DNA of 60,691 nt, the filler included. It is 7 parts of 7 records of this genome, joined end to end, with 100 filler letters (N's around TTAATTAATTAA, not from the genome) between each part and the next. Parts side by side here need not be neighbours in the genome. Positions count along the whole stretch, not along the records: positions 20,563 to 26,694 come from SRR31156797_34406; 6 more parts are not named here. The stretch is one strand, 5' to 3'. The number at the start of each line of letters is the position of its first letter. The first letter of the stretch is position 1. Of this stretch, positions 9,610 to 32,471 are shown piece by piece. The position numbers were made by a program, and so were the translations under genes. Under the pieces are notes generated by a model. It was not told the DNA's origin and did no database searches. It was given only the letters and a program-made list of their open reading frames with translations.

Positions 9610-9631
9610 AACAAATAATAAGGAGAAATAA

Positions 9632-10738: not shown

Positions 10739-10748
10739 GAGTGATTAG

Positions 10749-10940: not shown

Positions 10941-11082
10941 TCCGATAATACTGAGAATTAAACATGTCTCAACGACACAGAGAGAGGCTTACTCCCCCTC
11001 ATATGCAACCATAGTATATGACACGGATTTGGATGCGTATTACGGATGGAATGTAAGCAATGGCACTTGGACTGCATTATAG
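10927..11082 (+). CDS. Unannotated 51-aa phage protein (possible head decoration/fibre-base module)
   Basis: Manual translation MAMLSPIILRIKHVSTTQREAYSPSYATIVYDTDLDAYYGWNVSNGTWTAL*; GAGGTGA RBS; fills the gap up to the next gene's RBS. Confidence 0.75.
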   Translation: MAMLSPIILRIKHVSTTQREAYSPSYATIVYDTDLDAYYGWNVSNGTWTAL

Positions 11083-11094
11083 GAGGAATAGGCT

Positions 11095-11860: not shown

Positions 11861-12243
11861 TAAATATCAAAACACCACAATCAACCACAGTACGCACGAG
11901 CAGTGGTACGGCCTCAATACAATGGGACCCGACTCTTGGTGCTAAGTTGAGTGCTAAATACAACAAAGCTCAGGAACATATCGACAGTGAGGTGCTGAGA
12001 AGGTGTGAACCATATATCCCATATTGTACAGGTGCGCTGATAAGAAGCGGTAAAACAGGGACTGTAGTAGGCAGTGGTAATATCAAGTGGACTGTGCCGT
12101 ATGCTCGCTACCAGTACTATGTGGATAGAAAATCACCCGGTCAAGGGCTGCGAGGACCCCGGTGGTTTGATAGGATGATGAATTCCCAAGGGAAAGCAAT
12201 CCTTCAAGGTGCAGTTAAGATAACAGGAGGTAGAGCAAATTGA
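11857..12243 (+). CDS. Phage minor capsid / tail completion protein
   Basis: PYIPYCTGAL..SG, PYARYQYY, RGPRWFDR motifs; ATGA overlap with the previous gene. Confidence 0.8.
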   Translation: MINIKTPQSTTVRTSSGTASIQWDPTLGAKLSAKYNKAQEHIDSEVLRRCEPYIPYCTGALIRSGKTGTVVGSGNIKWTVPYARYQYYVDRKSPGQGLRGPRWFDRMMNSQGKAILQGAVKITGGRAN

Positions 12244-12659
12244 TTATAGACTATATTAAGGATTTGCTGATTCAAAGTCCTGTGATACAAGCCGGAGACG
12301 GATTGACGGTAGATTTCTTGGGAGAATATCCGACAACGTATTCAATAGAAGCTGAACCTAATCAGCCTAAACAAAAGCAGTACGTGAGAGGCAGCGGAAG
12401 TATAAGAACTTTCGCTTTTTCATTGGTTGCACGGTATGAGACCTTTACCGAGGAAATCAGAAAGCACAACAGTGACGACTTTGAGGAGCTAGGTCTATGG
12501 CTGGACAAACAAAGTAATGATATGCCTGAAATGGAGCACGGCAGGGCAATAAGAATCCAAGCAACAGGCAATGCATATGTAATTGAGCGTTCAAACGACA
12601 ATGACACTGCAATGTATATGATGCAGTGCCAATTAGATTATTATAAAAAAGGAGTATAA
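12240..12659 (+). CDS. Putative tail terminator protein
   Basis: VDFLGE.PT.YSIE..P, KQYVRG motif, C-terminal YMMQCQLDY; directly upstream of the tail tube gene. Confidence 0.7.
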   Translation: MIIDYIKDLLIQSPVIQAGDGLTVDFLGEYPTTYSIEAEPNQPKQKQYVRGSGSIRTFAFSLVARYETFTEEIRKHNSDDFEELGLWLDKQSNDMPEMEHGRAIRIQATGNAYVIERSNDNDTAMYMMQCQLDYYKKGV

Positions 12660-12662
12660 GAA

Positions 12663-13166
12663 ATGTCAAAAATAACAGTTAATAGTGTAATGGATGGAAT
12701 TACACCAAGTACAAGCTATGAAGGAATTGTGGTTAATGATGATTTCGTTCTGGCAATCGACGACGGAACTGCTACATCAGAAAGGGATTATTTAGTCCTT
12801 GAGGAAGCAGTTGTAGGTGTATCTCCTACATTCAACACAGGAACAAGTGACAAGACCTACTTAAGACGAGGCACATCATCAACAAAAACTAGTACTCAGA
12901 GACAGTTCGCTATATCCGGTGACAGGTTCATTGGTGATGATACACAGGACTACATTTTTGAGCTGGCTAGAGTATTCGGTCTGGGACAGGCATGTATTAC
13001 AAACTATGTCTACTTCAACCGTCTGACAGGTGCTGGTGAAAAAGGTCAATTGTCTATCATTGTAAACAATGACGGCGGCGGTAACGCAGGTGACCCTGCT
13101 GAAATCGACGTAGCGATGAATGGATTCGGCAGTATAGAAGAATATACATATACTGCAGCAGAATAA
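12663..13166 (+). CDS. Major tail tube protein
   Basis: KTYLRRG.S.TKT.TQRQFAISGDRFIGD.TQDY and DGGGNAG motifs; position in the module. Confidence 0.8.
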   Translation: MSKITVNSVMDGITPSTSYEGIVVNDDFVLAIDDGTATSERDYLVLEEAVVGVSPTFNTGTSDKTYLRRGTSSTKTSTQRQFAISGDRFIGDDTQDYIFELARVFGLGQACITNYVYFNRLTGAGEKGQLSIIVNNDGGGNAGDPAEIDVAMNGFGSIEEYTYTAAE

Positions 13167-13182
13167 CTAAGGAGGTAGTGCC

Positions 13183-13557
13183 ATGAGTGCCAGGTTTACA
13201 TACGGTGATTTGAACACAGAGATTAATTTCGCAGACCCGGAGGTCTATGTCAGGTTTCTGAAGACCCATAAAGTGTACCGAAGAATGATGAATAGGGTTA
13301 AGCGGTCAAGAAACTATGAAAGGCAAGCTAGAACCATTATTAAGGCAGTTAGGTATCTCTACGATAACTTCCTGGGGGAAGGTGCTGCAGATAAGGCTAT
13401 GAGCGGAGAAATTGATCTGGTGACAGCCACCAAAGCAGGAACTGAATTAGGAAACTTCTGCAGTGAAGAAACCAGAAAGTTAAATAACAAAATGGCTGAG
13501 ATGACTAAAAAGATTAAAGACTCAGCCACTAAGTATGCCCCTGAGGGGAATAAATGA
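13183..13557 (+). CDS. Tail assembly chaperone
   Basis: Helical protein with D.FLGEGA.DK motif between tail tube and Gp15-like genes. Confidence 0.65.
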   Translation: MSARFTYGDLNTEINFADPEVYVRFLKTHKVYRRMMNRVKRSRNYERQARTIIKAVRYLYDNFLGEGAADKAMSGEIDLVTATKAGTELGNFCSEETRKLNNKMAEMTKKIKDSATKYAPEGNK

Positions 13558-14186
13558 TGAAAAGTTTGTTTCACGCTCTACCCACAACAATTGATGTCAA
13601 TGGTAGAGCGTGGGGTATATACACTGATTTTAGAGAGTGGATGAAGTTCGAGCAAATGCTGATGGATGATATATCAGAGATAGAAAAGATAGGCATAATG
13701 TTGGGATTCTTTAAACCTAAATTTATTAGGAAGCATCCCTTTGATATTGCAGAGGCTATTGAGAAGCTGATATGGTTCTACAGATGCGGAGAGGATATCA
13801 TTGAGACACCAACAAATCAAAATAGGGCGTATGATTTTGAAAATGACAGCTCATTGATTGTATCAGCATTCTATCAGTTGTATAAGGTGGATTTGGTGAG
13901 CATTGAGCATCTGCATTGGTGGAAATTCAGATCTCTACTGGAAGGACTGACAGACAGTACCACCTATGGAAACATTGTATATATTCGTACCGTAGATGTC
14001 TCTAATATGCCAAAAACCCAGAAAAAAGAAATACTGAAGCAGCGTAAAAAAGTTGCAATTGAAAAGAAGAAAAAAGTAATGACAGCCGAGGAACGGGCTC
14101 TATTACGTGAAAAGAAAAAACAAGAAGTAATAGATAGGATAAATAGATTCGCAAAGGAGCAAGAAAATGGACGTATTAAAAGCTAA
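13554..14186 (+). CDS. Bacteriophage Gp15 family protein
   Basis: LP.TI.V.G....I.TDFR.W, AYDFE.D..LI.SAF.Q.Y.VDL, LHWWKF.SLL.GL motifs. Confidence 0.88.
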   Translation: MMKSLFHALPTTIDVNGRAWGIYTDFREWMKFEQMLMDDISEIEKIGIMLGFFKPKFIRKHPFDIAEAIEKLIWFYRCGEDIIETPTNQNRAYDFENDSSLIVSAFYQLYKVDLVSIEHLHWWKFRSLLEGLTDSTTYGNIVYIRTVDVSNMPKTQKKEILKQRKKVAIEKKKKVMTAEERALLREKKKQEVIDRINRFAKEQENGRIKS

Positions 14187-14233
14187 TGTAATAAAAATGT
14201 TAGACAAGCAAAATACAAAGAAGGCGAAACCAA

Positions 14234-14398
14234 ATGGCAGAAAATCAAAAAAAGAAGTGGATAGTGTGTCCACAGTGCAAAAGAGTGCAAAAAACAAACA
14301 AGTACGAGAGCAAGGCTAATGCTGTTGGCGTTTGGGTAAAATGTAAGCACTGCAAAACTGAATTTGAAATAGTCATTGAGAACGGAAAACAAATCTAA
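14234..14398 (+). CDS. Unannotated 54-aa four-Cys zinc-ribbon protein (Com-like)
   Basis: Manual translation MAENQKKKWIVCPQCKRVQKTNKYESKANAVGVWVKCKHCKTEFEIVIENGKQI* with CPQC and CKHC. Confidence 0.75.
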   Translation: MAENQKKKWIVCPQCKRVQKTNKYESKANAVGVWVKCKHCKTEFEIVIENGKQI

Positions 14399-14438
14399 AC
14401 AATAGTGCCTTGTGCCACATTCAACAGGAGATGAAATC

Positions 14439-17400
14439 ATGTCAACAGACGGCAGTATTACTATAAAGGCTTTGCTGGATACGGCAGGGCTGACATCAGG
14501 GCTTAAAGAAACTGAAAACAATTTAATAAAATTTGGTTCGAATGCTACAAAATATGTAACTACGCCATTTGTAAATGCTGCAACTGAGGCGATAAACTTG
14601 GCATCAGATATGCAGGAAACAACGTCAAAGATAGATAGTGTATTTGGCAATTCTGCAGATGCTATGATGGCTTGGAGCGAAACAACCATTGAAACATTGG
14701 GACTGGCAGGACAGACAGCTCTGGACATGACTGCCAACTATGGTGATATGGCTACCAGTTTTGGGTTCACTCAGCAGGCAGCTGCAGATATGGGGCAGGA
14801 ATTGGTCAGTAGGGCTGCAGATTTAGCCAGCTTCAAGAATATTTCTATTGATGTGGCTAATACTGCATTATCCGGTGTCTTTACTGGTGAAACAGAAAGC
14901 CTTAAACAGCTTGGCGTAGTAATGACACAAGCCAATCTAGATGCATTTGCTTTAGAGCAAGGCTTATCAAAGACTACTAGTGAAATGAGCCAACAGGAAC
15001 TTGTTGCGCTAAGGCTGGACTATGTAATGCAGGCAACCAGTAATGCAGCAGGCGACTTCGCAAGAACCAGTGACAGTACGGCAAACCAAACAAGAGTAGC
15101 CACACAGCGGCTAAAAGAGATGGGAACATCATTTGGCAAGCTATTGCTGCCTATGGCAAATAAGGCACTGTCGGTCATTAACAAAGTGCTTACAGCCTTT
15201 ACCAAAATGTCTACTAAGGGCAAGAAGACTGTGCTTGTAATTGCAGGTATTGCGGCGGCTATAGGTCCGGCTACTACGGGTATAACTAAATTTTATAATG
15301 CAACTAAGTCACTTTCAGACGGGTTTAAAAGTGTAAAAAAATTCTTTACTACTTTCGGTGCGATGGGTGAAGAATTCGCTTCTTCTATGGTCACAGCTAC
15401 AATGGCGACTAGTGCTAAAACAAAGGCTACTATAGCTCAGGGAACTGCAGAAAAGGGCGTAACTGTTGCTCTGACAAAAAAACAATTGGCACAGGCTGCA
15501 AATACAACGGCAGAAGTAACTGGTACAACTGTTACAGCTGCAAATACTGCTGAGTTAGCAGCAAATGCTGGTGTTATAAGTCTTAAGTCTGTACTAGTTG
15601 GTGTGCTAAACGGACAAATCGGTATAGTAACTGCTGCGCAGATGATTTGGAATGCAGCTATGGAGGCTAACCCTATATTTTTAGTGGTAGCTGTAATAGC
15701 TGCTGTAGCAACAGGACTTGTTCTACTTACTAAAAAACTATGGAAGAATACAGAAGCTGAAGCTGAAGCAAAAAAAGAAAAAGAAGCGCTGATAGAGGCA
15801 AACGAAAAGCTGAGAGAGAGTATTGAAGAAAGTGCTGAAGCATATGAGGATACTGTAAAGAGCTTAGAAACAGAAGGGGCTGCTATAAATAAACTTGTTG
15901 GTAATCTGGAGCAATTAGAAAAGGAATACCAAAACGTTGATAAGAATAGTGAAGAAGCCAAGAGAATACAGGCAGAAATGCAGGTATGCGTCAACACCTT
16001 AAATGGAAGTGTTGAAGACCTGAATCTATCTATTGATGAAGAAACAGGGTTGCTGAATAAAAATATCAAGTTGATTAAAAAAGAGACTCAAGCCTATGAA
16101 CTGAGTTTGAAACAGAAGGTAAAAGAAGAAAGGTATTTAGAATTAATAGAAGAGCAGTATGCAGCTCAGAAAACATGTCTTGATACCCAAGAAGAAATAC
16201 TTGATATTGAGAAGCAGATAGCAAATGGTACAATCCGTAAGGGGAAAGGCAACAAATGGATTAAACAGCTCAAAGAAGAACTAGTAGAAGCATCAACCAC
16301 CTGCCTTGACCTATTACCTGAAGTAAATGCGGTCAAGGAAGACCTTGCAGAACTTAATATTGAAGCGCAAGAGGTTGATATTGAACTAGGGTTAGAGCAG
16401 CAACAGGGGGAACTTCAGGCTTTAGCGGATGAGTTCGGTATGAGTTCAGAAGCTATTCAAGAGGCGGTTGAAGAATCAGGGCAGAGTACAGAAGATTGGG
16501 CAAGTTCCCAGAGAGAACAAATAGAACAACTGCAAGAATTATCAGATGAATTCGGTATGACGACGGAGGCTATTGCAGAAGCTGCTAGCGCATCTGGTAT
16601 GAGTATCGAGGACTGGAGCGACAGCCAAAGAGAGTATTTACAAGAAGTTGAGGATTGCTATACTTCCCTAAAAGATACAGCTACTAATGCATTTGAAAAG
16701 ATTGACCGTGGGCAATCAATAAGCATATCTACTATGATTACAAACCTTAATACAAATTCTGCTGCAGTAAAAGAGTGGAGTGATGGTCTTGCTTTTTTAG
16801 CCGAGAAAGGTATTGACCAAGGTTTCTTACAAACTCTTCGTGATATGGGCCCAGAATCAGTTAATCTTGTATCATCTATGGTAGGAGAGTTAAGCAATGG
16901 AAGAGACGAATTAGTAGATGAGTTCAATACAGCCTTTGCAGACAGCGGCCAAGCTGGATTTGATGCATGGGAAACGACAGTAGCGTCTACTGAATTTAAA
17001 AATATACCTGCAGAAGCGGTAGAGGAAGCAGCAGGTAAAGTAGATGCGGATACTTCTCTGGAGACTAGTATCACCAATACAATGATAGATGCTGTAACTG
17101 CTGCGACATCATATGTAGAGCAATTTGGTGACGTAGGAAAACAAATGATGACCGGAATGGCTGCCGGTGTAACAGATAATGCACATCTAGTCTCTGCAGC
17201 AGTAGCACAGGCTGTAAAAAATGCAATTGCTACAGCGAAAGCAACATCTGACCAAGCCTCACCGTCTAAAAAATTCAGGGCAATAGGTAGATACGATATT
17301 GAAGGCTATAGGCTAGGCTGGATAGATAATATGGATAGTACCTTTAGCAACATTCAAACGGCGCTGGATAAAAATCAAAATATACTACAACCTGCATATG

Positions 17401-17609
17401 CGGCTGTTGATAACTATCAGAGAAGAGCTGCCCTCAGTGCACAGTCTAACGTATCCTATAATAATGTTTATAATAGCTACTCACAAAGTGCAGATACCAA
17501 CCAAGATGTAAATGTAACGGTGGGTATTGACCCAGATATGAGTAAATTTGCAAGGATTCTCTATCCGTATATAAAAGATGAACAGGTTAGGAGGGGCGAT
17601 AATGCTTAG
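14439..17609 (+). CDS. Tape measure protein
   Basis: About 1056 aa, Ala/Thr/Glu-rich; MSTDGSI.I N-terminus, FTGETESLKQLG, ANPI membrane segment, C-terminal ASPSK motif. ATG 14439 follows AGGAG. Confidence 0.93.
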   Translation: MSTDGSITIKALLDTAGLTSGLKETENNLIKFGSNATKYVTTPFVNAATEAINLASDMQETTSKIDSVFGNSADAMMAWSETTIETLGLAGQTALDMTANYGDMATSFGFTQQAAADMGQELVSRAADLASFKNISIDVANTALSGVFTGETESLKQLGVVMTQANLDAFALEQGLSKTTSEMSQQELVALRLDYVMQATSNAAGDFARTSDSTANQTRVATQRLKEMGTSFGKLLLPMANKALSVINKVLTAFTKMSTKGKKTVLVIAGIAAAIGPATTGITKFYNATKSLSDGFKSVKKFFTTFGAMGEEFASSMVTATMATSAKTKATIAQGTAEKGVTVALTKKQLAQAANTTAEVTGTTVTAANTAELAANAGVISLKSVLVGVLNGQIGIVTAAQMIWNAAMEANPIFLVVAVIAAVATGLVLLTKKLWKNTEAEAEAKKEKEALIEANEKLRESIEESAEAYEDTVKSLETEGAAINKLVGNLEQLEKEYQNVDKNSEEAKRIQAEMQVCVNTLNGSVEDLNLSIDEETGLLNKNIKLIKKETQAYELSLKQKVKEERYLELIEEQYAAQKTCLDTQEEILDIEKQIANGTIRKGKGNKWIKQLKEELVEASTTCLDLLPEVNAVKEDLAELNIEAQEVDIELGLEQQQGELQALADEFGMSSEAIQEAVEESGQSTEDWASSQREQIEQLQELSDEFGMTTEAIAEAASASGMSIEDWSDSQREYLQEVEDCYTSLKDTATNAFEKIDRGQSISISTMITNLNTNSAAVKEWSDGLAFLAEKGIDQGFLQTLRDMGPESVNLVSSMVGELSNGRDELVDEFNTAFADSGQAGFDAWETTVASTEFKNIPAEAVEEAAGKVDADTSLETSITNTMIDAVTAATSYVEQFGDVGKQMMTGMAAGVTDNAHLVSAAVAQAVKNAIATAKATSDQASPSKKFRAIGRYDIEGYRLGWIDNMDSTFSNIQTALDKNQNILQPAYAAVDNYQRRAALSAQSNVSYNNVYNSYSQSADTNQDVNVTVGIDPDMSKFARILYPYIKDEQVRRGDNA

Positions 17610-17970
17610 TATTGACGGTATAGTCTATGATGTTGATTTCTGCAATTTCTCTGAAAGCATGAAGATGGAGAATAAATACTCTAAGATTACTGCAGATAAA
17701 GTAAAAAAGACTAAGGTGAACAGGGTTGTTAATTCATACACATTCACCATTGGAGATATTGACGATGATACCTATGTATCAATTAAATCTGCCTTGTGCA
17801 GTAAAGACGATTATCATACGTTTATTCTACTGAATACTAAAAACAGACCTATTTCTTTTGAAGGTTTAGTAATATCCTTCGGTGCGGCTTTAATTATTGA
17901 TAAAGACGACGGTACAAGACTATGGGATAATCTGACTATAGGAATCGAGGATAGACAGGATGTCAGTTAA
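17602..17970 (+). CDS. Putative distal tail protein
   Basis: Small beta-rich protein immediately after the tape measure gene; start MLSIDG after AGGAGG. Confidence 0.55.
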   Translation: MLSIDGIVYDVDFCNFSESMKMENKYSKITADKVKKTKVNRVVNSYTFTIGDIDDDTYVSIKSALCSKDDYHTFILLNTKNRPISFEGLVISFGAALIIDKDDGTRLWDNLTIGIEDRQDVS

Positions 17971-19603
17971 TGTAATATGGCAGCAGGTAGATGTAGGTGG
18001 GAAAGAAGACAGTATTCTCAATGTATCCACTGAGAAAAGCTTCTCTAAAATCTTAAGGTTAAAAGATGAGTTCCCCACAGTTACAAAATATGCGACCTTA
18101 GAGCCTGGCAGATGGAAGCTGGACGGCACGTATAAAATGATGGAAAGTGATGATTGTGAAGTAAATGCAGTATGGTGGTCTGAGGAACAAAGTGATGATA
18201 ACGGAGACTTTGCGACATATCCCGTATTGACAATAGAGTTTACTAAGGACAGGTCTAGCGGCGGTATAACATTTGTATTTGACGAAGCTACAGACGAGTA
18301 CTGTACAGACTTGACCGTAGCGTGGTATCAAAGTACGGGAGCGTTGATAAAATCAGTAGACTTTCAACCTGATGCCGCCAATTATTTCTGCGAGAACATC
18401 GTTGAAAACTATACGAAAATAGTGGCTACATTTAAAGCAACTAATAAAGCGTACAGACGGCTAAAAATATCGGATGTTAATTATGGACGCATAATAAAGA
18501 TAAATGAGGGATTGATAAAGGCTGAGATTCTGGAGGAGATATCACCTACAGGAGAGCAGATTAGCATTAACACTGCTACTATATCATTCCTGGACAACTA
18601 TGTATCAATACTAGACAGCAAGGGAGTATATGTAAACCTCAGAAAATTACATCCATTTGATTTCTACGTTGGAGATGAGTATTTCGGAAGATACTATATG
18701 AATAAGTGGACAGGCAGCGATGGTATAACCCCAAATAAATTCAGTCTGATAGACGTGGTAGGGTTACTGGAGCTGACAACATTCAAGGGTGGTATATATG
18801 ATGGAGTTACTGCTAAGGATTTGCTGGACGAATTATTTGATGGGATGCCTGAAGGAATTGAGTATACTATTGAGGAATCACTTCAGGATATTTTACTGAA
18901 CGGATGGCTGGAGAAGGACACCATACGGGAATCTGTCAAACAAGTTTGCTTTGCTATAGGGGCAGTAGTTGATACATCGAGACAGAATGTAGTGGCCATA
19001 AAAAGTCTATCTGATACTGTACACTCCGTGGACATTACAAGGCGCAGTGATAAACAGTCTATTAAAATTGAAACTAAGGTTACAGATGTAAGCCTGATGG
19101 CTCACTCATTTGTCTTGAGTGGTGAATCAAAGAAAGTGCATGAAGAAGAATATACTGCAGGTGAGTATGATATAGAGTTATCCAAACCCTGTGGTAACTA
19201 CACCATAGATAATGGTACTATTATTGATGCAAATGCTAATTATATCGTATTTACTACAGAGGGTGGTACAGTACTGATAAATGGCGAAGAGTATATAGAT
19301 ACTGAAACTGAATATACTGCAAGCGTAAATACTACTGAAAACTTGAGAGAAGCTATGGAACTAGATGAATACACACTGGTAGATGATAGTAAGGCTCAGG
19401 CTATTGCTGATAGATTGCTGGATTATTATTCAAGCCAATATATCAATGAATTCTCGGTTGAATTAGCAGAGGAAAGAGTAGGAGAGTTTTCTGAGGTTTA
19501 TCAGACAGATACACAAGTAATCAGGGGAGTTATTGAGGAGATGGAAATAGATTTGCTCAATGATAAAATAACAGATATTAAAGTGAGAGGCGAGGTAGTG
19601 TGA
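17960..19603 (+). CDS. Tail tip / baseplate hub-like protein
   Basis: 547-aa acidic beta-rich ORF in the canonical post-Dit position (YATLE...W.LDG motif). Confidence 0.6.
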   Translation: MSVNVIWQQVDVGGKEDSILNVSTEKSFSKILRLKDEFPTVTKYATLEPGRWKLDGTYKMMESDDCEVNAVWWSEEQSDDNGDFATYPVLTIEFTKDRSSGGITFVFDEATDEYCTDLTVAWYQSTGALIKSVDFQPDAANYFCENIVENYTKIVATFKATNKAYRRLKISDVNYGRIIKINEGLIKAEILEEISPTGEQISINTATISFLDNYVSILDSKGVYVNLRKLHPFDFYVGDEYFGRYYMNKWTGSDGITPNKFSLIDVVGLLELTTFKGGIYDGVTAKDLLDELFDGMPEGIEYTIEESLQDILLNGWLEKDTIRESVKQVCFAIGAVVDTSRQNVVAIKSLSDTVHSVDITRRSDKQSIKIETKVTDVSLMAHSFVLSGESKKVHEEEYTAGEYDIELSKPCGNYTIDNGTIIDANANYIVFTTEGGTVLINGEEYIDTETEYTASVNTTENLREAMELDEYTLVDDSKAQAIADRLLDYYSSQYINEFSVELAEERVGEFSEVYQTDTQVIRGVIEEMEIDLLNDKITDIKVRGEVV

Positions 19604-20028
19604 TAGTGTGGACAATACCTATATATGACAGAACCCAAGATGATGTAGATAATGATTCGTCAAAAGGTCAGATTAATTATGATGATCTAAACAGGATTGA
19701 GGGTAATACCCAATACTTAAGTGACCTGCTGAATCAGTATGGTTATAGCCATAAAATTATCACTAAATCTGACTGGAGTATCAATGATATAAGATACAAA
19801 GAAACAAGTAAGTCTCGAATAGTTGATAATATTGAGTATCTGGGAAAAATCTATATGCTGACAGGAGTAGAATTGCCTGACAGCATGGATAATCTGGAAT
19901 TTAAGGATGCAAACAATATTGAGCGAAACCTATATGTGATTAACCAAACTTTAGAGGCAATGATATACAACTTAAATAATTTTAATAAATGTGGAACTGT
20001 TTATACAGGAGGTAGCCCAATTATATGA
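19600..20028 (+). CDS. Phage tail-associated protein
   Basis: PIYDRTQ.DV, KG.INY.DLNRIE.N, NNIE.NL motifs; GTGA overlap. Confidence 0.65.
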   Translation: MIVWTIPIYDRTQDDVDNDSSKGQINYDDLNRIEGNTQYLSDLLNQYGYSHKIITKSDWSINDIRYKETSKSRIVDNIEYLGKIYMLTGVELPDSMDNLEFKDANNIERNLYVINQTLEAMIYNLNNFNKCGTVYTGGSPII

Positions 20029-20462
20029 TAACTCATAACAATATAAAAGCACCCAAAGACAGAGTGCCAGAGGTTGGTAAACAAGGCTATAGAAAGCTTA
20101 CAGATATAGAGACAGGAGAGATTAAAAACTACAAGGTAGAGTATGCAGATAATCCTAGCGAAGAGGGAACTTTAATAAATAAGGGTTATATTCAGACTAC
20201 TCGTGGTGCAAATCGTATATACGTAGAAGCTAGTGGACTGGTAGGCAATATGGTGCTATGCGCCGCTGGTGTATGGACTATATCTCAGAAAGGAACTCAT
20301 TATGCCGAATATGAGTATGTTCGTAATGGAATTACTTATACTGTTCTTGTTTCTGGTGGTAGTGCACGTATAGATTATATTCTGCAAGGTGTTAACTACT
20401 ACGCAGGAGAATTCGCAGATAAGCCGAATGCGATTATTAACCCACAGTTTGATGATGGTACT
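20025..20462 (+). CDS. Tail fibre / receptor-binding protein N-terminus (truncated)
   Basis: KDRVP...ADNPSEEGT.INK N-terminal pattern; runs into the linker. Confidence 0.5.
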
Positions 20463-20562
20463 NNNNNNNNNNNNNNNNNNNNNNNNNNNNNNNNNNNNNN
20501 NNNNNNTTAATTAATTAANNNNNNNNNNNNNNNNNNNNNNNNNNNNNNNNNNNNNNNNNNNN
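20463..20562. other. Artificial contig linker
   Basis: N-run, TTAATTAATTAA, N-run. Confidence 0.98.
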
Positions 20563-20700
20563 AAGGATCTCAGGGACTTTAATCATGCACCGGCGGTGGA
20601 TCAGGTCGGAAAGCTTGGAGGCCGCGTTACCGGCCCCGATGTTCCCGATCTCCTTAAGATCATTAATCTGTTCTTCGGTGAGCTTTAGAATTTCCATCAT
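20563..20700 (-). CDS. cheC: CheC-family phosphatase, second copy (truncated)
   Basis: DLKEIGNIGAGNAASKLS (D-x-x-E-x-x-N motif). Confidence 0.85.
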
Positions 20701-20769
20701 GATTTTGTCCTTTTAATAGAGGGCCATGGTTTATTAAAAATTGAATATTCAATATTCGATATTCAATTC

Positions 20770-21378
20770 TTATTCCCCCAATCCTAACGCTTTAACCATG
20801 CGATTCAGGGATTCATGATTCATGATATAAAGAAATGTCCCTTCAAATGGACTTTCCGTCCCATGGAACCGAGAGTGGATGACCAGCTTGTCTTCATCAG
20901 GCTTATCCAGCTGATTGATCAGCAGATCCAGAGACGTGCTCCAACTGTCCACAACCACTTCCGGCATGGACAGCTTGTACCGGATATGGAGGAATTCGCC
21001 CACGGCCTTGACAAAAGAGACCGTCAGCAGTTCGGCCAAATTCTTAAGGGCATACTGGGCCACAAAAGAAAAGTCTTTGCTTGAACGCCTTTCAGGGAAA
21101 GGGAGCATCATCTTGAGCAGCTTCTGTGCATCCCGCTTTTTCATGAGGACCATCATGATCGCGGGGATATCTCCATGGACCCTGATCATGATAGATACGG
21201 CCAGGACCCTGTCCATATCGAATCGTGTCTTGATATCAGCCACAGGCAGAAAAGCGGTCTCCGGGATATTCACCCTGCACCGTTGATGGATCTTATCCGA
21301 CAGGCGGGAAGCCGCGTACCCGGCGCCGATATTCCCGATCTCCTGAAGGTCTTCGAGGATCTGCGGATCCATTTTCAT
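20770..21378 (-). CDS. cheC: CheC-family phosphatase
   Basis: DLQEIGNIGAGYAASRLS...VNIP motif. Confidence 0.88.
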   Translation of the reverse strand: MKMDPQILEDLQEIGNIGAGYAASRLSDKIHQRCRVNIPETAFLPVADIKTRFDMDRVLAVSIMIRVHGDIPAIMMVLMKKRDAQKLLKMMLPFPERRSSKDFSFVAQYALKNLAELLTVSFVKAVGEFLHIRYKLSMPEVVVDSWSTSLDLLINQLDKPDEDKLVIHSRFHGTESPFEGTFLYIMNHESLNRMVKALGLGE

Positions 21379-21743
21379 TCCCCCAATACATTTTTAAGGA
21401 CCTTGATCAACTCGTTGGGCTGAAAGGGTTTGGCAATAAATCCCCGTGCGCCGGCCTTGACGGCATCCTCGGCCATGAGCTTCTGGCCAAGGGATGTCAG
21501 CACAACAACACTTGCCTGAGGGTCTATCTTTAAAATCTCCGTTAAGGCCTCCATCCCCTCCATCTCGGGCATGATCATGTCCATGGTCACCAGATCGGGT
21601 TTCAGCCGGCCGAACAGTTCGACGGCCTCCCGCCCGGTCTTGGCCTCCCCGGCCACTTCGTAGCCTGCGGCCTTCACGGTGTTAGTGATCAAACGCCTCA
21701 TTATTCGGGCATCGTCGGCAATCAGAATTCGCTTAGACATCAT
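21375..21743 (-). CDS. cheY: Single-domain response regulator CheY
   Basis: ILIADD, DLVTMDMIMPEMEG, TSLGQ, FIAKPF. Confidence 0.9.
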   Translation of the reverse strand: MMSKRILIADDARIMRRLITNTVKAAGYEVAGEAKTGREAVELFGRLKPDLVTMDMIMPEMEGMEALTEILKIDPQASVVVLTSLGQKLMAEDAVKAGARGFIAKPFQPNELIKVLKNVLGE

Positions 21744-21784
21744 TATTCCCCCTTTGGATTAAATATTTAAAATTAAATATTCAA

Positions 21785-24052
21785 TCACCTATACGTTCTC
21801 CTCAACACCGCCCTGACCCGATATACCAGTTCATCCATCGAAAAGGGCTTGGCCAAATAGTCGTCCGTCCCCACCTCAAACCCCTCCAAGCGATCCTCAA
21901 TCTCGCCTTTTTGAGAAAGGACGATCACCGGAATAAAGGCCGTGGCAATCTCCTTTCGCAATCGTCTGATCAGTTCCAGGCCGTCCATTTCAGGCATCAA
22001 AATATCCGTGATCACAAGATGAGGCTTTACCCGGCGGATACTTTCCAGGGCCTCCCTGCCATTCGCCGCAGTCGTCAGGTCAAATTGTTTCTTGAGCAAT
22101 AAGAAGGCCAACGCCTGAACCAGGATTTCATCGTCATCCACCAGAAGGATCTTGAACCCCTTGTAATCGTCCCCATTCCCCTCGCCCATACCGGGTGAGG
22201 GGATTTTTTCCGGATCATTGATGAGGACAACCCCCGCATCCGGAAACGCTTTCACCGCATGGCTGCAGAAGGGGCACGTCTGCCACTCGGGCTCAAGAGG
22301 CTTTTGACAGTGCGGGCATTTCAATCCCGCGGCCGGTTCGTCTTCCTGGGCTGCAAACAGGACCCTGTCCAGCTCCTCCACCGTGGTAATCCCCTGTTTG
22401 ATCTTCTCAAGAGCGTCCTCTATCAAAGATCCCATCCCATTCTCCACAGCCGCCGTCCTGATCTTTCCCTCCGAAGCCCCCTGGTTGATCAGCTCCCGAA
22501 TCTCCCCGGCCATCACCAGGATTTCGTAAACCCCGATCCTTCCCTTATATCCCGTATGCTGGCAGAGCTCGCATCCCTTGCCCCGGTAGAAGAGAAAGTC
22601 TATCTCTTTCCCTAATCTGGCCTCGATCTTCTTCACCATTTCCTCAGAAGGATCATATGCATCCCGGCAGTTTTCGCAGATGACCCGCACCAGGCGTTGG
22701 GAAACAATGCCCGACAAGGAAGAGGCTATTAAATAGGGCTCTATTTCCAGGTCCTTAAGCCGATTAATGGTAGAAACGGCATCGTTGGTATGGACCGTGC
22801 TCAAAACGAGGTGTCCCGTCAGGGAGGATCGCATGGCAATATCCGCAGTCTCCCCATCCCGAATCTCCCCCACGAAAACCACATTGGGGTCCTGCCTTAA
22901 AATAGATCTCAGGGCTTTGGCGAAGGTCAGTCCGGCCTTCTCATTGATCTGAACCTGATTGGCCCCATCAATCCTGTATTCGATCGGGTCTTCCAGGGTA
23001 ATGATATTGACCTTTTTCCGGACGATTTCATTGATCAGCGCATAAATCGTGGTGGTCTTGCCGCTTCCGGTGGGACCGCACACCAGAATCATCCCCTGCG
23101 AGAGGTGGATCATTTCCTGCAACTTCACCAACTCATCGGGAAGCAGGCCCAGCTCTCCGGTCGTCGTGATGTTCTTCCCCGTTTCAAGGATTCTGATCAC
23201 CACTTTTTCCCCGTATTGGGTGGGGAGGGTTGAGACCCTGAGGTCAACGATTTTCTCATCCATCCTTAATTTGACCTTGCCGTCCTGGGGAATGCGCCTT
23301 TCGGAAATGTCCATGCCGCACATGATCTTGATTCGGGAGACGAGGGCGCCCTGCACCCACTTGGGCGCCCGCATGGCTTCGCTCAGAATTCCGTCTATTC
23401 TGTTTCGCACCAGGAGTTCCCTTTCCTGGGGCTCGATGTGGATGTCGCTGGCACGGGACGTGATACCCGTAATAACAATAGAATTAACCAGCTTGACGAT
23501 GGGGGCCAACTGGCTCTTCCGCTTCAAGTCACTGAGATCCTCTTCGTCCAAATACTCATCACCGATAAACTCTACACCCACACCGCCTGCAAGATTCTTA
23601 AGGATCCTATCGATGGAGTCACCCGCGCCATAATGCAGGAGGAGGGCCTCATCAATATCGCTGCCGGGAGCGATGTTCGGGCGGATGTTCAAACCGGCGG
23701 CAAATCGCGCCATATCAACGGCTTCGTTATCGAGAGGATCCTTCATGGCCACAACCAGGTTTCTCCCTTCAAAATAGACGGGCAGAAGGTGGTGTTTTTT
23801 GACCAACTTTAAGGGGATACGTTCAATGGCTTTGGGATCTATGGCGACATTTTTTAAATCGAGGAATGGGATGCCGAGTTGGAAGGACATGGCCTTGGCT
23901 AAATCCCTTTCATTGGCAAATTTCAGACGAACCAGCGTCTCGCCCAGTTGTTCATGGGGATTTTTCCGGTTTTCTTCGAGAACGAGCGTTAGCTCCTCTT
24001 CATCTATTAAACCGGCCTTGACGAATATTTCGCCTATTTTTTCCTTTGCCAA
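21785..24052 (-). CDS. PilB/GspE-family ATPase with N-terminal MshEN-like domain, C-terminal double zinc ribbon and receiver domain
   Basis: KIGEIFV.AGLI / QLGETLV; ASDIHIEP; Walker A GPTGSGKTT; TLEDPIE; VGEIRD; LTGHLVLSTVH; CENC/CELC; CPHC/CPFC; REC with VDDD, TDILMPEMDG, AKPF. Probable TTG start at 24052. Confidence 0.93.
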   Translation of the reverse strand: MAKEKIGEIFVKAGLIDEEELTLVLEENRKNPHEQLGETLVRLKFANERDLAKAMSFQLGIPFLDLKNVAIDPKAIERIPLKLVKKHHLLPVYFEGRNLVVAMKDPLDNEAVDMARFAAGLNIRPNIAPGSDIDEALLLHYGAGDSIDRILKNLAGGVGVEFIGDEYLDEEDLSDLKRKSQLAPIVKLVNSIVITGITSRASDIHIEPQERELLVRNRIDGILSEAMRAPKWVQGALVSRIKIMCGMDISERRIPQDGKVKLRMDEKIVDLRVSTLPTQYGEKVVIRILETGKNITTTGELGLLPDELVKLQEMIHLSQGMILVCGPTGSGKTTTIYALINEIVRKKVNIITLEDPIEYRIDGANQVQINEKAGLTFAKALRSILRQDPNVVFVGEIRDGETADIAMRSSLTGHLVLSTVHTNDAVSTINRLKDLEIEPYLIASSLSGIVSQRLVRVICENCRDAYDPSEEMVKKIEARLGKEIDFLFYRGKGCELCQHTGYKGRIGVYEILVMAGEIRELINQGASEGKIRTAAVENGMGSLIEDALEKIKQGITTVEELDRVLFAAQEDEPAAGLKCPHCQKPLEPEWQTCPFCSHAVKAFPDAGVVLINDPEKIPSPGMGEGNGDDYKGFKILLVDDDEILVQALAFLLLKKQFDLTTAANGREALESIRRVKPHLVITDILMPEMDGLELIRRLRKEIATAFIPVIVLSQKGEIEDRLEGFEVGTDDYLAKPFSMDELVYRVRAVLRRTYR

Positions 24053-24105
24053 CGCAAACCCCCATTTTGGATATTGAATATTTGTTTTCCGAAATCCAAA
24101 ATCCC

Positions 24106-25194
24106 TCAAAGTGATTTCAAAATCTCACCCGATATTTTTTTCAGAGGGGCGACCGTGTCGATCCCTCCCTTTTCAATGGCGACCCTGGGCATCCCGAATA
24201 TGATGGAAGTGGCCTCATCCTGGGCAATGGTTGCGCCTCCCCGGTCTCTCACCTCTTTGATCCCCATGGCCCCATCATCACCCATGCCGGTCATGATCAC
24301 ACTGCACGCGCCGGGCCCGCATACCCGGGCCACCGATGAAAAAAAAACATCGGCGGAGGGCCTGTGAAGGGTGTTGGACGGTTCCTTACTCAAAGCCGTG
24401 TAGATTTTTCCCTCCATTCGCCTGACGGTCAGGTGGCGCCCTGTCGGCCCCAGGAGGCCCAGGCCCGGCCGAACCGGTTCGGCGTCCCCGGCAACCCTTA
24501 TCTCAAGGGATGATACGCTGTTGAGCCTTTCGGCAAGGGCGTGGGAAAACCCCTCACTCATATGCTGGACAATCACCAGGCCCGCCGGAAGGTTTGCGGG
24601 GAGATTCCCCAGGAGAATCTGAAGGGCCGCGGGACCTCCCGTGGATGCGGCTACGGCAACCAGTTCTTTTTTTATTCCGGACCTTTCAGCCATTGCGAAA
24701 GCAGGGGCGCCGTCCCGAGGCATTTGGGATAAGCTGGCGATGATATCCCTGAATTTCCCGGAAGCCACATTCACCCCGGCCGCTACCTTCAGCTTGCTCG
24801 TGTATACTGTCTTCACCTTTTGGACCAGATCCCCGGTGACTTTATCGATATCCAGGGAAATGGGACCGGACGGCTTGTGAATGTAATCGACGGCCCCCAT
24901 GGAAAGGGCCTCCATGGTCTGTCTGGCCCCTTCATAGGTCACCGAACTGAGCATGAGGACGGGGGTCGGCGCCTCAGCCATAATGTGCCTGAGTGCGGTC
25001 AGGCCGTCCATGACCGGCATGATCACATCCAGGGTAATCACGTCGGGCCGGAGTTTCTTGGTCATCTCAATGGCCTCCCGGCCGTTGGCCGCCGTCCCGA
25101 TCACCTTGATTTCCGGATCCCTTTCCAGGAGACGGGGAAGGTTGCGCCGTAAAAAGGCCGAATCATCCACCACTAAAACGCGAATCTGTTTCAT
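24106..25194 (-). CDS. cheB: Chemotaxis protein-glutamate methylesterase
   Basis: REC domain plus methylesterase with ASTGGP, VQHM, RPSAD, MTGMGDDG. Confidence 0.96.
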   Translation of the reverse strand: MKQIRVLVVDDSAFLRRNLPRLLERDPEIKVIGTAANGREAIEMTKKLRPDVITLDVIMPVMDGLTALRHIMAEAPTPVLMLSSVTYEGARQTMEALSMGAVDYIHKPSGPISLDIDKVTGDLVQKVKTVYTSKLKVAAGVNVASGKFRDIIASLSQMPRDGAPAFAMAERSGIKKELVAVAASTGGPAALQILLGNLPANLPAGLVIVQHMSEGFSHALAERLNSVSSLEIRVAGDAEPVRPGLGLLGPTGRHLTVRRMEGKIYTALSKEPSNTLHRPSADVFFSSVARVCGPGACSVIMTGMGDDGAMGIKEVRDRGGATIAQDEATSIIFGMPRVAIEKGGIDTVAPLKKISGEILKSL

Positions 25195-25796
25195 AATGAT
25201 CTCCGATCAGTTTCAAGGCTTAAAGATTCAGGTTCCTTTATGCCTGGATCCTTTGACGCCTGATTTCCCTTATTGGCTGTTTCCTTCAAGATCTTTCTTA
25301 TATCCAGGACGATGAGCATCCGGTCGTTCAATGGGCTGACCCCCTTGAAATACTCCGCCTGGATCTTGGCCACATCCGGTGGAGGGGGCTGAAAAGCCTC
25401 AAAGGAGAGCCGCAGCAATTCCCACATACGATCCGCTACAATTCCCACCAGGACCTCATCCCATTTCATGATAATAATACGGCTGTCCGGACCCGGCTCT
25501 TTCCGGTTGAGATGGAACAGAATCCGAAGATCAATCACCGGAACAATGATCCCCCGAAGGTTGATGAGACCCAGAATATAGTCTGAGACATTGGGAAGGG
25601 GCATAATGGGGACCATCTCCATCATCTCGGCAACATCTTCAATATCCGCCCCGTAAAGCTCATCGTCCAGTTCAAAGGCAACGATCTTCCTGAGATTGCG
25701 TTCCCGCCTCTCTTCAAACTCATCTTCCCAGTCATCATCATTGTTGTTTGCTGATTGTTGATTGTTGATTGATTCCATTGCGGATTGTCCTTCCAT
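25191..25796 (-). CDS. cheW: Chemotaxis adaptor CheW
   Basis: F.L.DE.YG, PN...YILGLINLRG.IVPVIDLR; start at 25796 after AAGGAG. Confidence 0.92.
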   Translation of the reverse strand: MEGQSAMESINNQQSANNNDDDWEDEFEERRERNLRKIVAFELDDELYGADIEDVAEMMEMVPIMPLPNVSDYILGLINLRGIIVPVIDLRILFHLNRKEPGPDSRIIIMKWDEVLVGIVADRMWELLRLSFEAFQPPPPDVAKIQAEYFKGVSPLNDRMLIVLDIRKILKETANKGNQASKDPGIKEPESLSLETDRRSL

Positions 25797-25815
25797 CTTT
25801 TCGATCTCCTTCCAC

Positions 25816-25845
25816 CTGGTTCCCATGCTCCGGCGTGGGAACGAG
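25816..25845. repeat. REP-like palindrome
   Basis: GTTCCCATGC-TCCG-GCGTGGGAAC (25819-25842) between the two cheW genes. Confidence 0.65.
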
Positions 25846-25881
25846 AGGAAAACTTAAAACCTGAAACTGCGGCTTACCGCA

Positions 25882-26637
25882 TCAGATCCTTGCGTTGTTT
25901 TGGGTCTGTTGCCCGTTGCCTTTGCCGGAGTTACAGGAGTCATGTTTTGAGTGCACTTCAACCTCTGAACCCAGGTCCAACATCTCTTTTTCATTCATGG
26001 TCAAGATTTTATTGAGATTCAGGATGACAAGGAACCGATCCTCCAGATAGACCACCCCTTCCATGAAGCGGGTCCTGATGCCCCCCACAATCTCGCTGGC
26101 CGCCTCGATCAGCCGGGTGGGCACGGTCAAGAGTTCGGAGGCGGAATCCACCACAAACCCCACATACTTCTTCTTCAGGCGCACGATGATGGTGCAGGTT
26201 TGATAGGACTTCTGAACAACCGGTAAATGTAACCGCTTTCTCAGGTCCACGATGGGAACGATCCGCCCCCGGAGCTTGATCACCCCATCCACAAAATCCG
26301 GGGCCTCAACGACCGGGGAAATGGTTGGGGCGCCCAGGATCTCTTTGACCTGACGCACATCCACGGCATGCTCGTGATCAGCTAATTTGAAGACCAGGAC
26401 GCGGATGGACGGCTCATTTTGGATCTCGGATTTCGGATTTCGGATTTCGGATTTTTCGGCATCCGGCGCATCAGCAACTGCAACGGCTTCATTGTTGCCC
26501 GACGGCATTGCTGTCCGCGCTTCACCGTCCCGATTCCCATGGACCGTCTTTTTCTCGGGCGTTTTTTCTTCAACCCGAGCTTTTTCCTTTTGGGCTTCTT
26601 TTTCTTTGGTCTTCTTTCTCGCTTCTGGTATGTCCAT
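25882..26637 (-). CDS. cheW: Chemotaxis adaptor CheW with low-complexity N-terminal extension
   Basis: VKEI, APDFVDGVIKLRGRIVPIVDLRKRL, VGFVVD. Confidence 0.92.
   Translation of the reverse strand: MDIPEARKKTKEKEAQKEKARVEEKTPEKKTVHGNRDGEARTAMPSGNNEAVAVADAPDAEKSEIRNPKSEIQNEPSIRVLVFKLADHEHAVDVRQVKEILGAPTISPVVEAPDFVDGVIKLRGRIVPIVDLRKRLHLPVVQKSYQTCTIIVRLKKKYVGFVVDSASELLTVPTRLIEAASEIVGGIRTRFMEGVVYLEDRFLVILNLNKILTMNEKEMLDLGSEVEVHSKHDSCNSGKGNGQQTQNNARI
26417..26459 (-). repeat. Heptamer tandem repeat (AAATCCG)n inside the cheW N-terminus
   Basis: Plus strand GGATCTC GGATTTC GGATTTC GGATTTC GGATTTT; translates as KSEIRNPKSEIQN. Confidence 0.9.
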
Positions 26638-26672
26638 GGATCGTTACTCCCTTTGCCAAATCCAAAATCGAA

Positions 26673-26693
26673 TCACACCTTAAACCCCTTCGT
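26673..26693 (-). CDS. Possible extreme C-terminus of a methyl-accepting chemotaxis protein
   Basis: Reads TKGFKV* at the contig edge upstream of cheW; FKV* is a common MCP ending, but only 6 codons are visible. Confidence 0.3.
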   Translation of the reverse strand, partial: TKGFKV

Positions 26694-26694
26694 G

Positions 26695-26794
26695 NNNNNN
26701 NNNNNNNNNNNNNNNNNNNNNNNNNNNNNNNNNNNNNNTTAATTAATTAANNNNNNNNNNNNNNNNNNNNNNNNNNNNNNNNNNNNNNNNNNNN
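26695..26794. other. Artificial contig linker
   Basis: N-run, TTAATTAATTAA, N-run. Confidence 0.98.
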
Positions 26795-32371: not shown

Positions 32372-32471
32372 NNNNNNNNNNNNNNNNNNNNNNNNNNNNN
32401 NNNNNNNNNNNNNNNTTAATTAATTAANNNNNNNNNNNNNNNNNNNNNNNNNNNNNNNNNNNNNNNNNNNN
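32372..32471. other. Artificial contig linker
   Basis: N-run, TTAATTAATTAA, N-run. Confidence 0.98.

Follow-up and report, generated by a model that had tools for sequence, protein, structure and literature searches.

A PilB-type ATPase with a C-terminal receiver domain encoded within a string of chemosensory genes

Why would a gene for a PilB/GspE-type ATPase carrying its own receiver domain lie between cheB and cheY, which kinase would phosphorylate it, and what would it drive? The stretch of DNA analyzed here (the window, 60,691 nucleotides at full length) consists of seven contigs joined by N44-TTAATTAATTAA-N44 spacers, and positions 20563-26694 are exactly one whole contig of 6,132 bp. 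One such artificial joint, which has no strand, occupies 20463..20562, and a matching joint lies at 26695-26794. Since the contig is bounded by spacers, genes beyond these limits are not neighbors of those within. The other six contigs are without che or pilus genes. One of the six is a phage fragment.

Is the fusion real? It sits on a short metagenome contig and the stretch is present in one run only, as might be expected if a misassembly, or a frameshift merging two separate genes, had created it. That one DNA run may be the source run; no RNA run containing the 6,132 bp is listed. However, when the source run was reassembled independently by Logan, all 6,132 bases were recovered without a single difference in one contig of 9,078 bases, at a word depth of about 38x. 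On the downstream side, past 20563, this contig extends 2,946 bases further. Furthermore, 30 further proteins on other contigs are collinear with the fusion across ATPase, ribbon, and receiver, and 17 more single-ORF fusions were read in genomes. An artifact is highly improbable and, as far as assemblies and homologues can show, refuted; the fusion is genuine.

All of the genes discussed here are on the minus strand. ORF and Pfam analyses confirm the order foreseen by the original prediction, cheW-cheW-cheB-[MshEN-PilB/GspE ATPase-zinc ribbon-REC]-cheY-cheC-like-cheC-like, with intergenic gaps of -4 to 69 nt and no minus-strand terminator-like site found within the string. The first CheW (251 aa; 25882..26637; Pfam CheW 112.1 bits, NCBIfam CheW match below cut-off) has its CheW domain at residues 80-214, after an N-terminal extension of about 80 aa. 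The second (211 aa; 25191..25826; Pfam CheW 117.3 bits) ends in a 4-nt overlap with the start of cheB. This gene (24106..25194) encodes a methylesterase of 362 aa with the Pfam domains REC and CheB_methylest, scoring 405.9 bits against an NCBIfam CheB subfamily model with a cut-off of 293. Past the fusion gene by 41 nt begins cheY (21375..21743), a single-domain protein of 122 aa with a Pfam Response_reg score of 103.8 bits; a CheY model gives its top NCBIfam hit, which falls short of the cut-off. CheA, MCP, and CheR are absent from the 6.1-kb contig, which reaches only 57 nt upstream of the first cheW and breaks off within the final gene. That cheA and cheR lie off the contig had been stated earlier, and neither is among its ORFs; the pathway's kinase is thus unseen.

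The last two genes are CheC-like, and here the original prediction of two CheC proteins stands in part. The first (202 aa; 20770..21378), a predicted CheY-P phosphatase, matches NCBIfam CheC_Thtogales nearly end to end (E 1.8e-25, model positions 1-200 of 201), but at 90 bits against a cut-off of 250, and its Pfam CheC/CheX hits are also below threshold. The second is represented by its first 46 codons (20563..20700; CheC model E 6.2e-11), truncated by the contig end. The phosphatase site of CheC, CheX, and FliY reads D/S-x3-E-x2-N-x22-P. As read from the translations, the core ExxN-x22-P occurs once in each of the two proteins, with E or N at its first position; in the 202-aa protein it lies near the N terminus, with no clear second site.

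What, then, is the protein in the middle? The fusion gene lies at 21785..24109. Its longest ORF has 774 codons from a TTG at 24109. A TTG at 24052, giving 755 aa, is the likelier start, as it fits the N termini of relatives and is preceded by a GGGGG run. The gaps on its two sides, to cheB and to cheY, are 41-53 nt. The T2SSE core (residues 199-582; 22364..23515) scores 429.7 bits in Pfam (cut-off 24.9) and has the complete PilB/GspE motif set that had been claimed for it: Walker A (GPTGSGKTT, 345-353), Asp box (LEDPIEY, 372-378), Walker B (VVFVGEIRD, 410-418), and His box (LVLSTVHTND, 434-443). Its tetracysteine zinc site (CENC 478-481 plus CELC 513-516) is kept in all 31 aligned family members. 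The closest solved relatives include Thermus PilF and Geobacter PilB (5zfr/5tsg), the latter at E 3e-140 over residues 20-586. The NCBIfam equivalogs are not reached, with 581.4 bits for PilB (TIGR02538; cut-off 675.65) and 574.7 for GspE (TIGR02533; cut-off 630.25). An extra C-terminal ribbon, CPHC-x10-CPFC (residues 598-615; 22259..22321), is a single CxxC-x10-CxxC and not the double zinc ribbon (DZR) proposed earlier. Its Pfam Zn_Ribbon_1 match (E 5.5e-4) is below cut-off; 29 of 31 family members retain the ribbon's cysteines.

The MshEN domain scores 73.4 bits in Pfam (cut-off 23.1), and within it two tandem 24-residue MshEN_N motifs (residues 24-47 and 54-77; 23879..24040) form a predicted c-di-GMP site. 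They were compared by eye with the consensus RLGxxLLxxGLVxxxxLxxxLxxQ, in which R, L, G, L, L, and Q are key (supplement of PMC5013675; PMC7288161). These positions read K, I, G, L, L, N in motif 1 and Q, L, G, L, M, Q in motif 2, so that about 8 of 12 equal the consensus and 4-5 depart by this count. The changes are R to K, L to I, and Q to N in the first motif and R to Q and L to M in the second; they include R38 to Q, and the equivalents of both R38 and Q32 are altered. The spacer between the motifs is 6 residues, versus 5 in the consensus. Perfect conservation, according to the published work on the motif, is not needed.

At the C terminus lies the receiver (residues 654-765; 21815..22150; Pfam Response_reg 98.7 bits). 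As predicted, its acidic pocket (DDD 658-660), phospho-acceptor (Asp702), and Lys754 are intact; Ser732 is present as well. Among NCBIfam receiver models it fits PhoB best, the solved structures that match it best are receivers of the OmpR/PhoB family, and it shares 34% identity with the operon's CheY. By these comparisons it is PhoB/OmpR-like rather than CheY-like.

Which kinase would feed such a receiver? The genomic contexts of 17 relatives with a C-terminal REC, all outside the fusion's own 17-row clade, bear on this question. (Family trees were LG+G4 quick searches with SH-aLRT support only. One member of the fusion's clade, HWP47857.1, is encoded on a 94.6-kb contig.) A complete che cluster, with CheW, MCP, CheA-REC, CheB, and CheR, adjoins the fusion in two of the 17. 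At L201 the order is fusion-CheW-CheW-MCP-CheA/REC-CheB-CheR/TPR, and at L203 the fusion is divergent to CheV-like-MCP-CheA/REC-CheB-CheR/TPR. The original prediction was to be given up if homologues elsewhere had no link to che genes; with two such clusters on hand, this test does not refute it. The che wiring therefore recurs, but as a minority arrangement. A HisKA or Hpt kinase is found within two genes in 10 of the 17 contexts, and a REC-GGDEF cyclase no more than 2 kb upstream in 8. In this respect the family acts like a modular response regulator. The nearest relatives with context, L236 and L237 (Nitrospirota, in the same zinc-ribbon super-clade), are accompanied by a GAF-HisKA kinase plus REC-REC-GGDEF. 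Might the receiver take its phosphate not from CheA but from a kinase of the HisKA type or of an Hpt phosphorelay, with its gene elsewhere, so that the fusion's place in the che operon reflects co-expression or cross-talk? The PhoB/OmpR-like receiver, the 10 relatives near HisKA or Hpt genes as against 2 beside CheA, and the kinase next to L236 and L237 all point that way. However, the contig carries no HisKA kinase and the fusion gene is closely spaced between cheB and cheY. Moreover, for the two relatives with complete clusters, CheA-REC is the only adjacent kinase within the operon, and non-CheY receivers are an established pattern in Che-like pathways, WspR being an example. On balance a non-CheA kinase seems unlikely, if far from negligible.

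Is the pairing with cheB itself conserved? No contig was common to the top 120 CheB relatives and the listed fusion relatives. This comparison covered longest contigs at the level of clusters, and because its values are cluster-level, it argues only weakly against a conserved pairing.

What would the ATPase drive? No pilus or secretion structural gene was seen among the neighboring ORFs scanned in any of the 17 contexts, or on the 6.1-kb contig, where the ORF and Pfam scan found no pilin, PilC, or secretin gene, as stated earlier. The accompanying generalization, that PilB-type genes sit with pil genes, does not hold for the REC-fusion family, which lies in signaling gene clusters and not in pilus clusters. 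The label “pilus/secretion motor” is, as a result, an assumption. The fusion could instead be no filament motor at all. It would then sense c-di-GMP and phosphorylation as a signaling ATPase or scaffold, with something other than a filament under its control, such as exopolysaccharide production or the biofilm state. Along with the lack of pilus genes in all 17 contexts, this would suit the REC-GGDEF cyclases directly upstream in 8 of them, the L237 module, which follows a pgaABCD polysaccharide operon, and the scores under both equivalog cut-offs. Catalytic motifs have also decayed in 14 of 31 aligned members, which lack the His-box histidine; in 6 of the 31 the phospho-site Asp is Glu. Part of the family therefore has no need of ATP hydrolysis. 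PilB of Myxococcus xanthus has been reported to signal to exopolysaccharide production (PMC5544727). Yet neither the tetracysteine site nor any catalytic motif has been lost from the contig's copy, the solved structures that match it best over residues 20-586 are true PilB motors, and PilC-type platforms are encoded elsewhere in fusion-bearing genomes (2-3 PilC/GspF genes per genome in all five tested, none near the fusion). A non-motor role is quite possible, though we would not bet on it.

Our preferred reading, plausible but held tentatively, is that this PilB-type ATPase-receiver of a che operon is phosphorylated by the pathway's unseen CheA, a modification predicted to switch the ATPase. 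More generally, the fusion would be a response regulator with a hexameric ATPase as its output. Phosphorylation probably gates it, c-di-GMP possibly does so too, and its connection to a Che pathway would be much like that of WspR, which follows wspF much as the fusion follows cheB. How might the switch operate? Phosphorylation of Asp702 may promote pairing of alpha4-beta5-alpha5 faces, in the PhoB manner, between neighboring subunits, and receiver pairing may in turn alter the activity or docking of the hexamer. A second input would reach the protein through c-di-GMP bound by its MshEN domain. CheY could serve as a phosphate sink or a parallel output; its phosphate, and perhaps that of the fusion, would be removed by the two CheC-like proteins. 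Finally, the ATPase would most likely drive, in trans, a type IV filament or a type II secretion platform whose genes lie elsewhere; this step is the weakest. Both CheA as the kinase and a pilus as the driven target are inferred. In favor of the mechanism are the intact domains and motifs, operon-like spacing, conserved architecture, recurring che wiring, platform genes elsewhere, and the agreement of the independent assembly; against it are the unseen kinase, the few che-linked relatives, the HisKA wiring of L236 and L237, the type of receiver, the weak signal from the CheB relatives, the lack of pilus or secretion genes in all 17 contexts, the motif decay in part of the family, the MshEN departures, and the scores below equivalog cut-offs.

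How does the locus compare with known systems? The Wsp system of Pseudomonas (WspA-F plus WspR) is an “alternative cellular function” chemosensory pathway. Like it, the contig has two CheW genes and CheB followed by a gene for a receiver-enzyme fusion, the pathway's output in Wsp and probably here, and the che-linked relatives L201 and L203 share with it CheA-REC hybrids and CheR-TPR. The contig thus shows the Wsp-like pattern of a receiver-enzyme fusion encoded within a che operon. It differs in that the output domain is a PilB-type ATPase and not a GGDEF cyclase, in that the receiver is C-terminal, in that CheY and two CheC-like genes, absent in Wsp, are present, and in that no CheA is visible. 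The c-di-GMP-binding assembly ATPases of the MshE, PilB, and PilF type share the MshEN domain with tandem MshEN_N motifs and the T2SSE core with all of its motifs; the extra zinc ribbon, the receiver, and the orphan genomic position set the fusion apart.

In Pil-Chp of P. aeruginosa and Tax1/PixG-PixH of Synechocystis, chemosensory pathways are described as controlling type IV pili by way of free CheY-like proteins (PMC11656802; 10.1101/2021.06.11.447907; PMC11181946). There, a Che-type pathway is linked with a PilB-type ATPase by separate regulators that act on its localization or activity, whereas the contig's ATPase carries its receiver in the same polypeptide, and no pil genes are found on the contig or beside the 17 relatives. 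A receiver joined to an MshEN-T2SSE ATPase has been listed before, as the REC-MshEN-T2SSE protein Gmet_3473 of Geobacter metallireducens in Supplementary Table 4 of Wang et al. 2016 (PMC5013675), but with the receiver at the N terminus. That table also includes MshEN-T2SSE-cNMPbind and does not list the C-terminal REC form. The N-terminal form occurs as well at L057 and L204, within histidine-kinase/HD-GYP clusters.

Is the architecture rare, as the original prediction implied? Protein-atlas clusters with T2SSE, MshEN, and REC have 123, 66, 80, 3,005, 224, and 55 members, so that the architecture is common in databases and the implied rarity is not borne out. Gemmatimonadota make up most of the 3,005-member cluster. 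Some 30 clusters with proteins of 745-806 aa are collinear with the fusion over zinc ribbon plus REC, and 19 of the best 150 representatives at 50% identity give a full-length single collinear match, as counted from the table. In searches of genome samples for the fusion's own clade, no relative closer than 52% identity was found. Among 401 Desulfobacterota genomes, 51 had a match at E<=1e-150, the best of them (52% identity) receiver-less. In the class of genome G151, which carries a che-linked relative, only G151 itself matched among 122; in that of G146, 3 of 17 matched, all receiver-less; and there were no matches in the class of G068 (4 genomes), in Myxococcota (281), or in Chloroflexota (281). 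When genome contigs were searched with the fusion protein, nearly all of the 80 loci listed were generic receiver matches. The only receiver-bearing ATPases among these 80, L053, L057, and L079, were set aside, as they have other architectures. A metagenome-contig search with the C-terminal sub-alignment yielded, among the matches listed, generic receivers and no family member.

What does the fusion mean for chemosensory biology? The route from such pathways to the type IV pilus motor is still open. According to a 2024 review, no interaction of PilG or PilH with PilB had been reported (PMC11656802). A receiver welded to a PilB-type ATPase offers a directly testable case, with one protein, one Asp, and one ATPase assay. 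The fullest version of the scheme, in which a chemosensory array directly phosphorylates a PilB-type hexamer that integrates receiver and MshEN/c-di-GMP inputs and gates a type IV filament machine in trans, is doubtful; if true, it would supply, in covalent form, a natural “Rosetta stone” for the link from CheY-like proteins to PilB, which is still unproven in Pil-Chp-type systems. The loss of catalytic residues in many members, and the presence of pilus genes beside none, caution against the annotation “pilus assembly protein PilB.” A literature search turned up no work on the function of a PilB/GspE ATPase fused to a receiver, with REC in either position. In at least three lineages the REC-fusion family lies in or beside che clusters. 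The MshEN-T2SSE-REC proteins look like a widespread and as yet unstudied class of response regulators whose output is an ATPase. Their usual partner is a REC-GGDEF cyclase, so they may connect phosphorelay with c-di-GMP signaling.

Between cheB and cheY, within an operon-like row of genes on the contig at 20563-26694 of the window, lies a gene for a PilB-type ATPase that is intact and also carries an MshEN domain, an additional zinc ribbon and a complete receiver of the PhoB-like type. Every gene of this contig lies on the minus strand: CheW (26637-25882, with an extension of about 80 residues ahead of its CheW domain), a second CheW (25826-25191), CheB (25194-24106, above the NCBIfam CheB subfamily cut-off), the fusion ORF (24109-21785), CheY (21743-21375), a CheC-like protein of 202 aa (21378-20770, a full-length match to a CheC model at E 1.8e-25 that falls below the cut-off), and the initial 46 codons of a second CheC-like gene (20700-20563), which the contig end cuts. 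Overlaps and gaps between these genes run from -4 to 69 nt, and the coding strand of the contig carries no terminator-like sites.

How far can the surroundings be read? Six N44-TTAATTAATTAA-N44 joints (8743-8842, 20463-20562, 26695-26794, 32372-32471, 42359-42458, and 53646-53745) divide the window into seven unrelated-looking contigs with G+C from 0.40 to 0.56, and the che contig is exactly one of these. The other six differ in G+C (0.40-0.56) and contain no che or pilus genes. Readings spanning a joint are meaningless, and the surroundings can therefore be read only from the che contig itself and from relatives elsewhere. One of the other contigs (8843-20462) resembles a piece of phage DNA: its G+C is low (0.40), its GC skew is strong, and it encodes an SU10-type major capsid protein (9632-10738) and, further along, a Gp15-like protein (13554-14186); the large ORFs after these belong to no family.

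Is the fusion itself real? In the Logan assembly, the whole 6,132 bases fall without differences within one 9,078-base contig at about 38x word depth, an agreement between two assemblers and not between two samples, since the one run with this DNA may be the source. This contig extends 2,946 bases past window position 20563, downstream of the cut cheC-like gene. Querying with residues 560-774 returned about 30 clusters, 745-806 aa long, that share the fusion's Pfam set and run collinear with it across ATPase, ribbon, and receiver (41-63% identity), and 17 further single-ORF fusions were read directly in genomes. On these three lines of evidence the fusion is real; it stands against misassembly, and the collinear homologues in other contigs are more telling on this point than the Logan contig.

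Pfam places MshEN at fusion residues 78-164, T2SSE at 199-582, and the receiver at 654-765. The ATPase retains the full motif set and the tetracysteine site, and the receiver has its acidic pocket, Asp702, Ser732, and Lys754 in place; the motif positions bear out the original observation of complete PilB/GspE motifs and an intact receiver. The C-terminal CxxC/CxxC ribbon noted there was also found, as one CxxC-x10-CxxC only (598-615). The longest ORF opens at a TTG (24109) overlapping the cheB stop. Translation more likely begins at TTG 24052, which gives 755 aa: the N termini of relatives fit this codon, and a GGGGG run lies six bases ahead of it. The initial 19 codons of the longest ORF (window 24052-24109) are therefore probably not translated. 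For residues 20-586, the top solved relatives are true PilB motors (Geobacter 5zfr/5tsg and Thermus PilF), and the fusion scores below the NCBIfam equivalog cut-offs of both PilB and GspE. The tandem MshEN_N motifs have K,I,G,L,L,N and Q,L,G,L,M,Q at their key positions (published consensus R,L,G,L,L,Q, twice); since they are recognisable but imperfect, binding of c-di-GMP is plausible. The receiver has PhoB as its best NCBIfam match and the PhoP, YycF, PmrA, and PhoB receivers as its best solved matches, and is by resemblance of the PhoB/OmpR kind. Its identity to the operon's own CheY is 34%.

What do relatives have for neighbours? Within a 401-genome Desulfobacterota sample, matches at E<=1e-150 occurred at 56 places in 51 genomes: 45 were ~640-aa proteins whose match took in the ribbon (up to residue ~616-626) and went no further, 7 ended near residue 581-601, and 4 reached residue ~770. 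By Pfam, two of those four loci, L201 and L203, hold true C-terminal fusions; L202 instead has an ATPase and, behind it, a REC-REC-histidine kinase as a separate protein, and in L204 the receiver is N-terminal and a free receiver comes next. The whole class of genome G144 (209 genomes) added 13, for a total of 14 in 12 genomes including L203, and a Nitrospirota sample (286 genomes) added two. The resulting 17 contexts cover neither the window's own clade nor the Gemmatimonadota-rich cluster, absences hold for the genomes searched, which are samples, and small genes may escape the simple longest-ORF script used to call locus ORFs.

Once these neighbourhoods were tabulated, che clusters stood beside 2 of the 17 fusions. 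L201 reads fusion-CheW-CheW-MCP-CheA/REC-CheB-CheR/TPR on one strand; the L203 fusion is head-to-head with CheV-like, 138-aa ORF, MCP, CheA/REC, CheB, and CheR/TPR genes. In 8 of 17 (L221, L223, L225, L228-L230, L236, and L237), a REC-GGDEF cyclase is encoded on the same strand no more than 2 kb upstream, and in 10 of 17 (L221-L226, L228, L230, L236, and L237) the fusion has a HisKA kinase, a hybrid kinase, or an Hpt protein at most two genes away. Three of those ten kinases are giants of 1,724-2,200 aa immediately adjoining the fusion gene in three genomes (L222:1834-7944, L223:10265-15439, and L224:9571-16173), with Ser/Thr kinase, AAA_16 ATPase, GAF, PAS, and histidine kinase domains and, in two, a receiver. 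Three loci (L231-L233) have no adjoining signalling gene, and L227 is uninformative, its contig being too short. Which kinase, then, would feed the window's fusion? CheA is the most economical for this locus, at about even odds; a HisKA/Hpt kinase in its place is kept in play by the PhoB/OmpR-type receiver and by the majority wiring among relatives.

Pilus or secretion genes adjoin none of the 17 (no T2SSF, secretin, pilin, or PilM/N/O match among the ORFs scanned, at E<=1e-6 to 1e-8), and in five fusion-bearing genomes the 2-3 PilC/GspF-type proteins per genome are all encoded far from the fusion. L237 holds a co-oriented string (L237:1690-16337, G1432:C22) of pgaA-pgaB-pgaC-pgaD, GAF-histidine kinase, REC-REC-GGDEF, MshEN-T2SSE-double ribbon-REC, DnaJ-domain protein, free MshEN protein, PilT-like ATPase, and receiver, which may link the family to PNAG-type polysaccharide; its kinase, cyclase, fusion, and DnaJ-domain genes are shared with L236.

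The receiver-less ~640-aa MshEN-T2SSE-double-zinc-ribbon ATPases (the 45 of 56 places) are always away from pilus genes (L205 and L207-L210 annotated), and an HD-GYP protein adjoins two of these five (L205 and L207). The N-terminal-receiver form, REC-MshEN-T2SSE-double ribbon (L057:94-12921 and L204:8382-16595), sits in a conserved cluster together with free receivers, REC-HD-GYP proteins, and histidine kinases; L057 also has an Arf-family small-GTPase match (7896-8564).

Quick LG+G4 trees (576-579 shared columns, support by SH-aLRT only) place the window protein within a 17-row clade (99) of metagenome proteins only, each with one ribbon and a receiver. Its sister (85) comprises receiver-less double-ribbon ~640-aa orphans, and the Nitrospirota fusions (double ribbon and receiver) fall in the same super-clade. 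The Desulfobacterota fusions, both che-linked ones included, lack a ribbon altogether and group in a clade of their own (98). The two che-linked rows do not pair as sisters, and one of them falls inside a set of kinase/GGDEF-linked rows. Che wiring has therefore been gained or exchanged at least twice, which is the behaviour of a modular response regulator.

Walker A, Asp box, and His box are all kept in 17 of the 31 proteins of alignment A1, and the window copy has all motifs intact. The His-box histidine is lost in 14 (P0003-P0007, P0011, P0012, P0015, P0018, P0019, P0021, P0028, P0035, and P0037), most also with Walker A or Asp-box changes and six with Glu for the phospho-acceptor Asp; these look like a pseudo-ATPase/pseudo-receiver branch inside the window's own clade. 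Such decayed paralogues, together with the orphan gene position, the cyclase partners, and the pga neighbour, lend real weight to the rival view that the protein signals independently of any filament. As the target of the window's fusion, a type IV filament platform with its genes elsewhere comes first, given how PilB-like and intact the core is; the target is the weakest link of our reading.

The MshEN-T2SSE-receiver architecture is common. Of the 150 best 50%-identity representatives in an exhaustive profile-free search, 19 matched over their full length in a single stretch (our own count), and protein-atlas clusters with T2SSE, MshEN, and Response_reg have 123, 66, 80, 3,005, 224, and 55 members, labelled mostly Gemmatimonadota or Thermodesulfobacteriota. 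Supplementary Table 4 of Wang et al. 2016 (PMC5013675) lists REC-MshEN-T2SSE (Gmet_3473), GAF-MshEN-T2SSE, and MshEN-T2SSE-cNMPbind, and not the C-terminal receiver form. The word "receiver" does not occur in a 2024 review of PilB regulation (PMC11656802), and full-text literature searches turned up no work on the function of a receiver-fused PilB/GspE ATPase.

Overall, the fusion belongs to a large family living in signalling clusters. We infer that the protein acts as a response regulator whose output is an ATPase and that at this locus it is wired into a Che pathway; phosphorylation could reasonably pair PhoB-type receivers between neighbouring subunits and so gate the hexamer. The WspR gene comes after wspF, and in gene logic this would be the nearest analogy to the placement of the fusion.
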